Assembly (NCBI GenBank): GCA_963796455.1
Contig: CAWCLO010000004.1
Span: 544,001 to 608,000, forward strand
Length of the DNA: 64,000 nucleotides
Origin: Candidatus Sulfomarinibacteraceae bacterium
Lineage (GTDB): Bacteria > Acidobacteriota > Thermoanaerobaculia > Thermoanaerobaculales > Sulfomarinibacteraceae
Direction: 5' to 3'
In this document: positions 55,055-63,993 of the stretch, in pieces
How the letters are laid out: every line of letters starts with the position of its first letter
Numbering within the stretch: the first letter of the stretch is position 1
Made by a program: the position numbers and the translations under genes
Notes under the pieces: generated by a model
Told to the model about the DNA's origin: nothing
The model's database searches: none
Seen by the model: only the letters and a program-made list of their open reading frames with translations

Positions 55055-56008
55055 ATGCGATCACCGGTTCGGATGGCTGTGGCGTGCTGGCTACAGTGCC
55101 TTGCACTGGTCGCCGCGGTCGGTGGCGCCCAGGAGACCGTTCACTTCACGGTTACGGCCGATGCCCGAGCGAATCACACCGACTACGAGGCAGTGCTGGA
55201 GGCAATGAACAACCTGGTCGGCGGCCAGGGTGACTTCCAGGTGTCGCCGGGTGACATGGACGGCCGCGTCTGGGACAACCGGGTCGTGGTGGATTGGTAT
55301 GCGGGAGCCTCCGCTGTTTGGATCCCCGGGGTCGGCAATCACGAGGCCGAGGATCCGGTTGAGATGGAGTGGGTCCGGTCTGAGTTCCTTAATGGCAACG
55401 GAGAGCGGACGCCACTCCAGAATCTGGTGGTCCGGGCCGGGCCCGCGGGCAGCCAGGAGACCACTTTCAGTTGGGATGTGGGCAATGCCCATTTTGTATA
55501 CCTCAACCAATACTGGGACGGCACCGCGAGTTCCGGGAGCGACGTGGCAACCGACGGCGACGTGGTCCCGGAGCTGCTGGCGTGGCTTCGAAACGATCTC
55601 GAGGCCAACACGTTGCCGGCGGTGTTCGTCTTCGGCCACGAACCGGCCTTTCCCATGTACCGCCACCTCGACGACAGTCTCAACGCGCACGCGACCAACC
55701 GCGACGCTTTTTGGACGCTGCTCGAGGAGAAGTCAGTAGTGGCGTACATCTGTGGCCACACCCACGTTTTCAGCACTTACAGGCCCGAAGGGGGACGGGT
55801 TTGGCAGATCGACGTCGGAAATGCGGGCAACGACTCCAGCTTTGACGATGGCCAGACCTTTCTCTCGGTGACTGTCGACGCCTCGCAGGTGGGTTTCGAG
55901 ATCTGCCGAAACAGCGAGGGCTCGTTCTCGTGCGATTCGAGCTGGTCCGAGGCCATCCCGATCGTGTTCAAGGATGGCTTCGAGTCGGGCGACTCCGGAA
56001 AGTGGTGA
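55055..56008 (+). CDS. Secreted metallophosphoesterase with C-terminal FxDGFE peptide
   Basis: ADAR, PGDMD, GNHE, GHEP and GHTH motifs; ends VFKDGFESGDSGKW. Confidence 0.85.
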   Translation: MRSPVRMAVACWLQCLALVAAVGGAQETVHFTVTADARANHTDYEAVLEAMNNLVGGQGDFQVSPGDMDGRVWDNRVVVDWYAGASAVWIPGVGNHEAEDPVEMEWVRSEFLNGNGERTPLQNLVVRAGPAGSQETTFSWDVGNAHFVYLNQYWDGTASSGSDVATDGDVVPELLAWLRNDLEANTLPAVFVFGHEPAFPMYRHLDDSLNAHATNRDAFWTLLEEKSVVAYICGHTHVFSTYRPEGGRVWQIDVGNAGNDSSFDDGQTFLSVTVDASQVGFEICRNSEGSFSCDSSWSEAIPIVFKDGFESGDSGKW

Positions 56009-57577: not shown

Positions 57578-57686
57578 TGAATAAGGAAAGGTTTTTTCCT
57601 TTCCTGGTACCGGTCACCTTAGCAGGGTGACACCCGTGCTGCGCCCAGCATTCATAGCGGTGGGGCTGAATCCGGGAATTGATTCC

Positions 57687-58481
57687 TCAGGGTTGGAACG
57701 CGGCCTGGATCATATCGTAGGGACCGCTGCTGCCATCCGGTTGGTAATCCACCAGCACCACCGAGTGCAGCTTGTTCCAATCGACGGTCATGCCGGACAG
57801 ATCCACCACCAGGTTGAAAGTGTCGGTGGCGCCGTCGGCCAACGAAGCAATGCTGTCCCAGGAAGCCTCACGGACGTAGCGATCGGTCACCCTGGCAATA
57901 CCGTCCGGAGAATCCTCGAAGGCAATGGCGTGCACCTTGGCGCGGTTTGCGGTCGACAGAGTCACTCCGGTTTTGTTGGTGACCTGGATCGTGAATTCGA
58001 AGGTGTCGTCGACTCGCTGTCTTTGCACCGTGATCGCACCTTCAGGCGCGCGGGCGAGGGCGGTCTCGACGAGCGCGCGGTAGTCCGTGCTGTAGTCGGT
58101 GGGCCCCATCGACCACAGATTTCCGCTGTCGAGAATGATCAGGGGAAAAGCGTAACTCGAACCCGGAATGGCGTAATAGACCCTCGAAAGGCGGTCGCCT
58201 CGCGAGTCGTAATAGTAGTTCTCGAGAAACACAATCGGCTGCTGCGTGTAGTCCGAGGAGATATGGTCGACCACCGGACCGGCGGCCTGGCAGTGGCCTC
58301 AGCCGGGGTTGTAAAAACCCTCGAAGACCACAAATCGGGTCGGCTGCTCCCAGGGTGTGGTTGCCCCGCTTTCGAAGCCATCGCTGAAAATGGCGTTGAT
58401 GCCGGCGGGCACAGGCCCCACGGCAAGCATGGCCGCGAGCAGAATAGGCGCGATTCGAAGAAAAGACGGCATCAGCGTCAT
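57687..58481 (-). CDS. Candidate exported selenoprotein: Omp28-like thioredoxin fold (UGHC) plus beta-sandwich domain; in-frame TGA at 58301-58299
   Basis: Two track ORFs (58299-58550 and 57687-58274) are in one frame separated only by TGA; read-through gives VVFEGFYNPG-U-GHC; SECIS-like hairpin follows. Confidence 0.85.
58269..58287 (-). promoter_or_regulatory. Putative bacterial SECIS element
   Basis: GGCCGCCG-GUC-CGGUGGUC stem-loop starting 12 nt after the UGA; G-initiated loop about 20 nt downstream. Confidence 0.68.
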
Positions 58482-58779
58482 CCTGCGAGGCCCGCTCGGT
58501 AATTCGGAAGATATTCTGGTCTGACTAACTACAGTGTTGATGGAAGTCATATCTCAATTCTAGTTGATGGATCGACACTGTCTGTGACGGGGATCAGCCC
58601 CGACTTCGAAATCTGGAGGGCGGGGAGGGGTGCCAAGTATCGCGATGTCAGCCGTGGGCATTCTTTCTGGTCGTTCCGACAGCGACGCATTCGGCGAAAC
58701 AAATGCCGGTTTTGAACGTACTAAAATTTTAGTAGCGCGTGGGCGGGACCTTCTCGAGGGTGCTCAAACGGAGGTGTTG

Positions 58780-59761: not shown

Positions 59762-60547
59762 CTAGTCACTGGCTTCGAGGCGTTGGATCTCCTCATTGAT
59801 GAGTTCTCTAGAGCGCTCGTCTGACCAGGGTTCTTCAATATGCTCAACCTTCGGATCCGGTGTTCCTGCTTCGTCAGATTTCGCGAAAATCAGAGGGGTC
59901 AGGAATGTGGGTTCGATGAGATTCGAAGAATACCAGCTCTTGAACTCTTCTGCAGTCCGCGCGTGGTATACATTCCTCCACTTGTCGAGGGTGATGTCAA
60001 AAAATACTGGACGGTCGAGTTTGATGTGTTCGTTTGAAATTCGATCATCAAAATAGGTCATCCGAACTTCGAGGAAGATCCAGATGTCCGCCGCCACGAG
60101 GCGCATCTCGCCGCCAGTGTACTTTTCAAAATGGGCGACGAATTGAGGCTGAGCGGTCCCCGATTCGTCGTGGAACTGAAACATCAACATTTCGCGTGAA
60201 TCGCAATAGAAATCTGCGAACGATGTTAGGGGTTTCACGTCATACTTCTCGAAGCTGTCCAGGAATGCCTTTTCTGAATACACCGTGCGACCGTTGACGC
60301 CCCCAAAAACTTTACATCCTGAGACGAACGAAGTGGCCGAATGAGCTTGCCCGTCACGATCGAACAACCTTTTCCTGATCTCGAGAAACGGCCATGGAAG
60401 ACCATCTGCGAGGTATTCGTGCCAAATGAAGGAATAGGTGATATTTGCACCGCTGGTCACTCGCAACATCCCGTCGGCGTGCATGAAGACATCATCGACG
60501 TAATCCGATCTCGAATACGTACTCGGCGGTCCATCCAGAATGGGCAT
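59762..60547 (-). CDS. Hypothetical protein, lower GC than its neighbours
   Basis: 261-aa ORF with RBS GGAGG before ATG 60547; no motif recognised. Confidence 0.6.
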   Translation of the reverse strand: MPILDGPPSTYSRSDYVDDVFMHADGMLRVTSGANITYSFIWHEYLADGLPWPFLEIRKRLFDRDGQAHSATSFVSGCKVFGGVNGRTVYSEKAFLDSFEKYDVKPLTSFADFYCDSREMLMFQFHDESGTAQPQFVAHFEKYTGGEMRLVAADIWIFLEVRMTYFDDRISNEHIKLDRPVFFDITLDKWRNVYHARTAEEFKSWYSSNLIEPTFLTPLIFAKSDEAGTPDPKVEHIEEPWSDERSRELINEEIQRLEASD

Positions 60548-60789
60548 TCCCACCTCCACTTCTCTTTCCCAGGGCGAATTCAGATCTCGCCGCTGTAACA
60601 ATCAGGAGTTCCTTTTCATAATAGCGTGGGGTGCCACTTGCACGGAGCGTGGGCACCGTCGTGACGTCCATGCCTGAAAGAGTGGAGGCCTTGCATGAGG
60701 GAACACTTCGCCCCAGTGTTTTGTTATTCGGGAAAACATCGACAAACGGCGGCACCTTGAATCACGATTCTGAATTTGATGAAACCCTG

Positions 60790-62097
60790 ATGGAGAGACA
60801 GCGACCGGTTGCCGGGATCGCATGGGGAGTCACCCTTTGTCTGATCCTCCTTGCTGGACAGGCCCATGCGCACGTGGCTCTCGACTCCCCCAACGGGGGG
60901 GAAATGCTCGAAGCCGGATCCGTTGCTCAGATTGTCTGGCACGATGTGGTGGCGCATGGACCGGCGGACTACGATCTCTGGTACTCAACGACTGGTCCGG
61001 ATGGTCCCTGGATCGCCATCGCGAGTGATCTTCCACCATCAGGATCTGAGAACACCTCATACGATTGGGTGGTTCCCGCTTCACCGTCCGACCGGGTTCG
61101 TCTCCGGGTGCGACAGGACAACGCCGACGAGGACTATCTGGACATCAGTGATTCGGACCTGGCGATCGTCAGTTTTCTGGCGGGTCAATCGGTCGAACTC
61201 GAAGCCGCGAAAGATGCCACGATTTATGAAGAGGAAAACGGCACTCCTGCGAACGGCTCTGGCAGTTACCTTTTCACCGGCCGCGCTGCGACACAAAATG
61301 CTTCGGCCGAACGGCGGGCATTGCTCGCGTTCCCGATCTCTCAGTCGATTCCCGAGGGTTCGACAATCACTTCAGTGAGCCTCGAGTTGACCATGTCGCG
61401 GACCATCTCGGGAGGCCAGACAGTGACGCTTCACCGGCTGCTCGAGGATTGGGGTGAGGGTCCATCAGATCCACCTGGGCAAGAGGGGGCAGGCGCAACG
61501 GCGGCGGCGGGCGACGCCACCTGGATGCATCGAGTGTTCTCGGAAACCCTCTGGTCGACACCCGGGTCCTCATTCGCGCAAACGGCGAGCGCTGAGTTGC
61601 AGGTCGCCGGCACGGGCAGTTACACATTTTCGAACAATCCTGAGCTGGTTGCCGACGTCCAACAGTGGCTTGACGAAGCTTCCAGCAATTTCGGTTGGGT
61701 GCTCGTGATCGACTCGCCCTTTTCAGGCAGTGCGAAGCGTTTCAACAGCCGGGAAAACGGCACGGCATCCAGCCGTCCAAAGCTGACCATTCGATATGAA
61801 TCCGATCTCAAGCAACCAACCGCCGGTTTCGGTTTCGCTCCAGCCAGCCCGCAACCCGGTGAAGAGGTGCGTTTCAGCGACGAATCGACTGGTGCACCGA
61901 CGAGCTGGCTCTGGGACTTCGGAGACGGTCAGACCAGCGAACAACAAAACCCGGTTCACACCTACCCGACCTCTGGAAGCCGGACCGTGACCCTCGTGGT
62001 GAGCAACGATTCCGGTACGGACTCCGTTGCTAAAGAGGTGAACATTGGCGGTTCTCCGGTGCGCCGGCCTTCGCGGCGAGTGGTGCCCATTCGTTGA
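60790..62097 (+). CDS. Secreted multidomain protein: Ig-like, DNRLRE-like and PKD domains with Arg-rich tail
   Basis: Signal peptide (AHA); SPNGGE; DATIYEE..RRALLAF..RPKLTI; PTSWLWDFGDG..NPVHTY; ends RRPSRRVVPIR. Confidence 0.85.
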   Translation: MERQRPVAGIAWGVTLCLILLAGQAHAHVALDSPNGGEMLEAGSVAQIVWHDVVAHGPADYDLWYSTTGPDGPWIAIASDLPPSGSENTSYDWVVPASPSDRVRLRVRQDNADEDYLDISDSDLAIVSFLAGQSVELEAAKDATIYEEENGTPANGSGSYLFTGRAATQNASAERRALLAFPISQSIPEGSTITSVSLELTMSRTISGGQTVTLHRLLEDWGEGPSDPPGQEGAGATAAAGDATWMHRVFSETLWSTPGSSFAQTASAELQVAGTGSYTFSNNPELVADVQQWLDEASSNFGWVLVIDSPFSGSAKRFNSRENGTASSRPKLTIRYESDLKQPTAGFGFAPASPQPGEEVRFSDESTGAPTSWLWDFGDGQTSEQQNPVHTYPTSGSRTVTLVVSNDSGTDSVAKEVNIGGSPVRRPSRRVVPIR

Positions 62098-62838: not shown

Positions 62839-63993
62839 CTATTGCCACTCGCCGGTGTCGCCTTCCTCGAAACCGTCCTGGAAGATCCCAACGTTAAACA
62901 CGGCAAGAGTATCTTCAACGCAACCCACGTACAGTGAACTGCTGGTTGGATCGAGAGCCAGGGAGTACGGCCCGTCCAACCCGGTGACGCCGTCGGCTCC
63001 ATTTGTTGCCGTGTAGTCGAGGGTGAGTTCGCCGGTGTTGAGATTCCTGTCGAACACGGACAGTGTGTCCCCGGTCTCGCTCACCGCATAGATCCGCTTT
63101 CCGGTGCGATCGATGGCAAGTTTCCGGGAAAAGGTGAGAAAGTGATCTTCGACGTAAGTCAGGAGACCGGTCCCGGCATCACGGGAAAAAACCCCGACAT
63201 AGGATCCGCTTGTGTAGATGTGATTTCCAGCGGGGTCGCCGGTCACATTGTAGAGACCGAATAGACCGCTCACTCCGTCGACTCCTTCCACCACTTGGCC
63301 GAGCCAGGTCAGAGCACCTGTGGAGGAGTCGCGGGAAAAGATCGCGATCGCGTCATCGTCGGCGCCGGCGACATAGACGTGGCCGCCATCGGGGGCCACG
63401 AAGACGCCCCGGGGGTTGGCGATTCCGTCGACCCCGTCCACTCCATCGAAGTGCACCTCGACAAAAGTCAGCACACCGGTTGTCGGTTCGCGAGAAAAGA
63501 CCGCCAGCCCGTCATCGTTGGCGCCGCCCGCATAAACGTGTTTCCCGTCGGCGCTGATGGCAATTGCAACCGTCAATTCGAGGCCGTCGATGTTGCCGGA
63601 ACCATCGATGTACTCGTCCACGTAGGTGAGCGCACCGGTTCCCAGGTGGCGGGAGTAAACCACAATTGAGTCGTCGTATCCGGTTGATATGTAGAGGTGG
63701 GTGTTGTCGGGTGAAAGGACCGCGTCCCCGACATAGCCGACATCCGCCAGGGTATCGACCCAGGTCAGGGCGCCGGTGGAGGGGTCGCGGCTCAGGGTCG
63801 TGACAGCGCCGGTCCACACGCCGGCAATGACAAACCCCCCGTTCGAGGAGGTCAGGACCGCCCTCACGTCCGGATAATACGTCGCATCTTCGTGGTGCTC
63901 GAGAAAGGACACGAACCCGCCGGCCCACACACCGCCGGAAATGAGACATAGCGCGAAAAGTACCAACAGGAAAGTTGTTCTCTTGGGTTCCAC
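62839..63993 (-). CDS. Secreted lactonase-like beta-propeller protein with C-terminal FxDGFE peptide
   Basis: Signal peptide; repeated SPDG/SADG-HVY...FSRD..TGALT blades; ends IFQDGFEEGDTGEWQ. Confidence 0.88.
   Translation of the reverse strand: MEPKRTTFLLVLFALCLISGGVWAGGFVSFLEHHEDATYYPDVRAVLTSSNGGFVIAGVWTGAVTTLSRDPSTGALTWVDTLADVGYVGDAVLSPDNTHLYISTGYDDSIVVYSRHLGTGALTYVDEYIDGSGNIDGLELTVAIAISADGKHVYAGGANDDGLAVFSREPTTGVLTFVEVHFDGVDGVDGIANPRGVFVAPDGGHVYVAGADDDAIAIFSRDSSTGALTWLGQVVEGVDGVSGLFGLYNVTGDPAGNHIYTSGSYVGVFSRDAGTGLLTYVEDHFLTFSRKLAIDRTGKRIYAVSETGDTLSVFDRNLNTGELTLDYTATNGADGVTGLDGPYSLALDPTSSSLYVGCVEDTLAVFNVGIFQDGFEEGDTGEWQ

Follow-up and report, generated by a model that had tools for sequence, protein, structure and literature searches.

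The minus strand of the 64,000-nucleotide stretch of DNA analysed here (the window) carries, at positions 57687–58481, a gene of 264 residues in which an in-frame TGA (58299–58301) is almost certainly recoded as selenocysteine (Sec), as judged from sequence comparison. The predicted Sec61 occupies the first position of a U-G-H-C motif, and the gene as a whole very probably encodes a single thiol-disulfide oxidoreductase that contains Sec, has the HBP35/Omp28 fold and is exported. The recoding, already proposed in the first-pass annotation of this DNA, is supported by the selenium machinery of the genome, by the presence of TGA at the same column in 59 of 88 homologous loci, and by a covarying hairpin. 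Conservation of the in-frame TGA together with the hairpin across the homologues is well above chance.

The predicted selenoprotein gene and its flanking signals

Two open reading frames of translation table 11, at 58550–58299 (83 residues) and 58274–57687 (195 residues) of the minus strand, had been listed separately and lie in one common frame, as the first reading of the sequence held. The codons quoted around the TGA at 58301–58299 are present as given, and read-through from ATG 58481 to the true TGA stop yields 264 residues. The segments singled out earlier (IFSDGFESGATTPW, RFVVFEGFYNPGUGHC and YAFP) all occur in this protein, which contains U61 and C64 and is otherwise Cys-free. ATG 58481 is taken as the start and gives a leader whose length agrees with that of orthologues; the other option, ATG 58472, gives 261 residues and has AGGA 8 nt on its 5′ side. 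The prediction that gene callers would split the gene is borne out by the databases, which hold the 195-residue downstream product as a protein (P0004).

A promoter-like site on the same strand (58557–58584) is a consensus match only; a −10-like box followed by TGAGA was also seen, in a comparison by eye, 5′ of four close orthologues. Between the gene and that of a YfcC-type transporter lies a terminator-like hairpin (57584–57605, minus strand), which is weak, as 2 such hairpins were found against 1.6 expected. Among the upstream neighbours of 75 loci, the Sec forms share no family, and with the gene's own promoter- and terminator-like sites this means that gene context names no client. Elsewhere in the window, an AT-richer open reading frame of 279 residues (59762–60601, minus strand) has no Pfam or NCBIfam match.

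Homologues and the residue at the Sec column

The 88 distinct homologous loci comprise 59 with TGA at the column (that of the window included), 17 with Cys and 12 with Gly, or, by motif, 51 UxxC, 8 UxxS, 16 CxxC, 1 CxxS and 12 GxxC. The expectation that homologues would carry Cys or TGA at this site was thus confirmed for the first two classes and failed for the 12 Gly loci. In related genomes, the core of the protein (220 residues, after leader and tag) was matched in 35 of 61, and the 50 matches listed correspond to 48 loci (25 with a TGA codon, the window's own included, 11 with Cys and 12 with Gly). Scanning GTDB contigs yielded 56 loci, 49 of them with TGA and 7 with Cys, a count that is biased to Sec forms because the query alignment was made of Sec forms, and in which one locus (L101) is taken as TGA after a one-codon alignment correction. 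By title, the GTDB loci stem mostly from Thermoanaerobaculia and other Acidobacteriota and from Anaerolineae and other Chloroflexota, with a few others. Judged by these named relatives, the window itself probably stems from a Thermoanaerobaculia-like acidobacterium. The family is restricted to certain lineages, given that an evenly drawn sample of 301 genomes of the phylum contained just 7 with a match.

The sequence on the 5′ side of the TGA is kept as protein, with Arg at −12 and Glu at −7 each present in all 59 TGA loci, and a start codon where the downstream open reading frame begins here is found in only 14 of the 59. The three closest intact orthologues from other genomes are 55–58% identical and have TGA at the same column. 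Among the best 150 database representatives at 50% identity, 105 begin past the Sec column. L101, a UxxS homologue with a TAG 13 codons 5′ of the TGA and a weak hairpin, is probably a pseudogene.

A quick tree was built from 82 of the 88 rows with the active-site column masked (L026, L053, L054, L055, L107 and L111, short or frameshifted, were omitted), and implies 9 changes among U, C and G. As the tree is unrooted, no claim is made that Sec is the ancestral state. SelA is present in 59 of the 61 related genomes, indicating that the Cys and Gly forms do not track loss of the machinery.

A uniform SECIS-like hairpin follows the TGA

The first-pass annotation had placed a hairpin 12–30 nt after the UGA, and this position stands (58269–58287, minus strand). 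One detail is refined: a stem of 7 bp closed by a 5-nt GGUCC loop agrees better with the centroid fold and with the homologues than an 8-bp stem with a GUC loop. The predicted bacterial SECIS element was assessed with our own simplified implementation of a published model (loop of 3–9 nt, G in the first two loop positions, spacing of 16–37 nt, at most −7.5 kcal/mol; PMC13188914), which it passes at −11.5 kcal/mol. By itself the hairpin is not above chance (z of +0.48 over 62 nt and −1.19 over 33 nt). Synonymous recodings of the gene pass the model in 28% of cases and reach 7 of 7 pairs in 5.3%. A control set of 2568 TGA stops, each closing a frame of 300 codons or more, contains 262 that pass the model and 4 with the exact geometry. 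Rfam returned no SECIS match.

Across the family, the model accepts 52 of the 59 TGA genes, where synonymous recoding predicts 19.0, and it accepts 7 of 17 Cys and 2 of 12 Gly genes. At least 6 of the 7 pairs form in 55 of the 59 TGA genes, and the loop begins with GG in 56. Stem pairing reaches 94.7% of cells in the TGA genes (19–61% in slid registers) and covariation is seen at 5 of 7 pairs, with 33 double-sided changed cells against 5.4 in shuffles, values to be read with the provisos that kin are not independent and that the stem was defined from the same sequences. Pairing in the Cys and Gly genes (72.4%) also exceeds that in all 500 shuffles, so that the encoded AAGPAV peptide and relatedness account for part of the signal. 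The SECIS element of the family is unusually uniform. Scanning the whole genome with the family geometry produced 70 candidates, among which only the selenoprotein gene looked real by eye. The 11-nt spacer and GU-containing loop presumably resemble those of the E. coli fdhF element.

Selenium machinery and other candidate Sec genes of the genome

The genome (5.02 Mb, 90.5% complete) encodes SelA (394 bits), SelB (317 bits) and SelD (348 bits), all over curated cut-offs, as well as a tRNA-Sec with anticodon UCA, so that every component of the Sec machinery that had been proposed as a check was recovered. ARAGORN also called tRNA-Asp(gtc) of an identical length of 95 nt four times in contig C1 and three times in C10; a dispersed repeat is a likelier source of these calls than genuine tRNAs.

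The machinery appears to be in use, since 7 of the 14 peroxiredoxin-like matches in the genome show a TGA in frame, placed at a TxxU or UxxC site. These seven peroxiredoxin/TlpA-like genes (C4:241464, C10:125676, C4:219814, C4:458582, C1:1155845, C5:108022 and C1:54539) include two that seem frameshifted or cut soon after the TGA, and only 3 of the 7 pass our version of the SECIS model. No Sec codon was found in the molybdopterin-enzyme, FlpD and SelD genes of this genome that were examined.

Predicted export and fold

The selenoprotein is in all likelihood exported, judging from its predicted N-terminus: residues 1–26 (58404–58481, minus strand) form a probable, cleavable signal peptide by heuristic assignment, ending in VPA|G and without a lipobox Cys, with a hydropathy peak of 2.7 at residues 13–22. 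Of the 119 homologues that are full-length and have the motif, 115 likewise begin with a hydrophobic N-terminus, in agreement with the export suggested at first reading.

Behind the leader, at residues 31–44 (58350–58391, minus strand), lies an IFSDGFESG..W tag that is found at the same place in the homologues L009–L011. The tag is N-terminal in the selenoprotein and is common to many exported proteins of the genome, in which IFxDGFExG..W has 33 matches (23 of them C-terminal) and none in a reversed control; its role may lie in sorting or anchoring. A literature search for DGFESG found no paper with the motif. Within the window the pattern occurs at 55960–56008 (plus strand), 58350–58391 (minus) and 62839–62890 (minus), and the neighbouring metallophosphoesterase and lactonase-like genes are among its carriers. 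An Arg-rich C-terminal tail, seen in 107 of 119 homologues and also in an exported DNRLRE/PKD protein of the window (60631–62097, plus strand), may be a second lineage-specific tag.

The mature protein was described at the outset as a thioredoxin motif followed by a beta-sandwich-like domain, and the model and structure matches agree with this, giving a two-domain fold like that of Omp28 and HBP35. By alignment and AlphaFold model, the thioredoxin-fold domain spans approximately residues 49–144 (58050–58337, minus strand) and includes Cys64 and the invariant Pro113 (58145–58143), which stands directly ahead of a strand at the cis-Pro position and whose cis conformation we infer. An Ig-like beta-sandwich domain follows at approximately residues 146–264 (57690–58046, minus strand) and is like the second domain of Omp28/HBP35. 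With 44 sequences, AlphaFold2 gave a pLDDT of 96.5 and a pTM of 0.92, with the U61-G-H-C64 motif at the start of helix 1; a single-sequence fold of the mature protein reached a pLDDT of 45.7. The best structure match over the whole core is HBP35 (5y1a; Z 17.7, rmsd 3.1, 206 aligned, TMq 0.69), and the DUF1223 protein 2axo also matches the whole core (Z 14.6). The Omp28 structure 2r2c matches the second domain (model residues 102–220, Z 9.3), and a sequence search of the PDB gave short thioredoxin/PDI matches only. In other homologues the core is fused to BACON, cohesin, DUF11, fn3 or LRR surface modules, or to an unnamed domain of 280 residues, and the fusions to surface modules fit with a surface location of the core.

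The Gly branch and its operon

In the quick tree, 11 of the 12 Gly forms fall into one well-supported clade together with 7 Cys forms. Among 14 chosen stretches, 9 (8 GxxC and 1 CxxC) have an operon with the order TPR protein with a conserved terminal Cys, rhodanese, MauE/DoxX, DsbA-like protein, family gene; of the others, one GxxC locus retains operon remnants, and two CxxC loci and two Sec loci occur on their own. The operon was observed at L146–L154 in other genomes of the order, where the TPR protein is exported and has about 520 residues. In the genome of the window, tblastn for the operon and the MauE cut-off were both negative. Through this operon the family is connected with thiol or sulfur chemistry outside the cytoplasm; the window's gene is not part of it. 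One GxxC gene, L020 (G048), has kept its SECIS-like hairpin intact and is placed, with weak support, among the Sec forms; it possibly reflects a recent Sec-to-Gly change.

Alternative explanations and a proposed mechanism

A TGC mutated or misread to TGA, making the gene a pseudogene or a base-call error, would suit the 17 homologues with Cys and the state of the raw reads: of 16 runs, none is on record as RNA and none contained half of the search words, and in the four runs that exist as contigs the TGA is spanned only by the contig of one relative (11 differences in 62 nt), leaving the window's own codon uncovered. Such an origin is nevertheless very improbable, as the three closest intact orthologues and the 59 TGA loci, from several phyla, share both TGA and covarying hairpin, and the GC3 of the two halves of the gene (0.72 and 0.77) is in line with that of a neighbouring gene (0.76). 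Hardly any probability attaches to two genes, in which a short exported peptide would be followed by a 195-residue protein initiated at GTG 58274: the database entry for the latter agrees with such a division, whereas the break would split helix 1 of the thioredoxin fold, the 29 Cys and Gly loci are uninterrupted, and the place of the first start codon 3′ of the TGA varies among more than 20 positions. The Gly found in 12 homologues could be taken to indicate a changed genetic code in which UGA is read as Gly or Trp. This is extremely unlikely given that TGA is an ordinary stop here, ending 2568 of the 3704 frames of at least 300 codons as well as the selenoprotein gene itself, whose terminal TGA has TAG as its aligned counterpart in L009 and L010 and is not followed by a hairpin that fits the SECIS model; the tRNA-Sec is, moreover, the only UCA tRNA found, and the Gly forms use GGN codons with 11 of 12 in one clade. 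Recoding as Sec is the preferred reading of the TGA.

As regards the chemistry of the Sec protein, action in the reductase or isomerase direction is somewhat better than an even bet. The same protein might instead introduce disulfides into exported proteins, as an oxidase of the DsbA/PDI type, which we consider unlikely. U-G-H-C is similar to the PDI motif CGHC, PDI domains are the top sequence matches, and the GxxC relatives adjoin DsbA-like and MauE genes; Sec in general favours reduction, however, the G-H dipeptide is variable across the family (P-I is commonest) and so says little on redox direction, UxxS, CxxS and GxxC members are incapable of an intramolecular active-site bond, and MauE over its cut-off is absent from this genome. 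According to PMC2907840, HBP35 is a surface protein that reduces insulin through CxxC with both cysteines needed. In work cited there it is also said to complement a dsbA mutant of E. coli, an observation in favour of oxidase activity. Other redox chemistry is a minority prospect, slightly ahead of the oxidase. A doubtful, more elaborate picture would make the family the catalytic end of an extracytoplasmic sulfur/selenium-transfer relay rather than a general disulfide reductase. Taken jointly, this speculative picture would have stand-alone UxxC/UxxS forms act with selenium, a GxxC clade that lost the attacking residue and obtains its chemistry in trans from the five-gene operon, and IFxDGFESG..W as a sorting signal of non-T9SS surface display in Thermoanaerobaculia.

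For the favoured thiol-disulfide oxidoreductase, we infer the following steps beyond sequence and fold. SelB with Sec-tRNA would bind the GGUCC-loop hairpin so that Sec61 is inserted, and the signal peptide would direct export of the selenoprotein. The Sec61 selenolate may then attack a disulfide of a client protein, and Cys64 could resolve the mixed bond to leave a selenenylsulfide. A membrane donor, presumably DsbD (DsbD_TM is over its cut-off in this genome), would re-reduce the Sec61-Cys64 bond, and the Ig-like domain and tag may place the protein at the envelope or on its clients.

Comparison with known systems

The closest catalogued kind is GOS_C, described in 2008 (PMC2398784) as a Trx-like protein with UxxC and without an assigned function, and listed in Table 1 of a 2026 review (PMC13188914) as NF045500, for which the NCBIfam name is Omp28-related selenoprotein. 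Exported Omp28-like UxxC selenoproteins have thus been predicted since 2008, and no new principle is involved. The present family shares with it the character of a predicted UxxC selenoprotein with a Trx-like fold. To 8 sub-cut-off proxies (acidobacterial proteins detected by NF045500 at 35–79 bits, many with TGA), hhalign aligns the family over 199 columns, Sec on Sec, at 98.7% probability; no member over the 200-bit cut-off was present in the 301 genomes of the phylum. Unlike NF045500 members, the query has no match to the profile at E 0.1 and only 2 of 44 family members are detected (best E 0.033; cut-off 200 bits). Identity to the proxies is ∼18%, the query has 264 residues against the 377 positions of the model, and the present family differs in lineages and tails and in having UxxS and GxxC variants.

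Porphyromonas gingivalis HBP35 (5y1a) is likewise exported and has thioredoxin and Ig-like domains with the motif at the N-terminal helix, but it carries CxxC, a T9SS C-terminal domain and haemin binding, whereas the query carries Sec, ends at the last Ig strand with no T9SS domain, and is 11–13% identical. The two-domain architecture is also that of DUF1223 (PF06764; 2axo) and Omp28 (PF11551, NF033782; 2r2c). The query does not match the DUF1223 profile, to which 5 of 44 members match weakly (best E 3e-4), and it is below cut-off for the Omp28 profiles (NF033782 3 of 44 members, best E 0.007; PF11551 none); in contrast to the Omp28 lipoprotein it lacks a lipobox and has only Sec61 and Cys64. 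A second uncatalogued Omp28-like group with U-P-x-C, several per genome and below the NF045500 cut-off, was seen at L116, L118 and L120–L123 of other Acidobacteriota.

No paper naming the branch was found in the literature consulted, which included PMC13326102 and PMC12013277; members could be present in GOS Dataset S2 or in the BSepDB tables, perhaps under the label of thioredoxins. The branch is held in databases mostly as truncated proteins, and a profile would mend annotation in Thermoanaerobaculia and Anaerolineae. One fold that accommodates Sec, Cys or Gly as the attacking residue and either Cys or Ser as the resolving one offers a natural series for the contribution of Sec outside the cytoplasm. 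As the NF045500 cut-off is missed and the alignment to the proxies runs end to end with Sec on Sec, the family is placed within the known kind of Omp28-related selenoproteins, as a branch so far uncatalogued and made up of members from Thermoanaerobaculia and Anaerolineae. It probably works like GOS_C and HBP35 and is related to them, and by the defining score it is not a GOS_C member.
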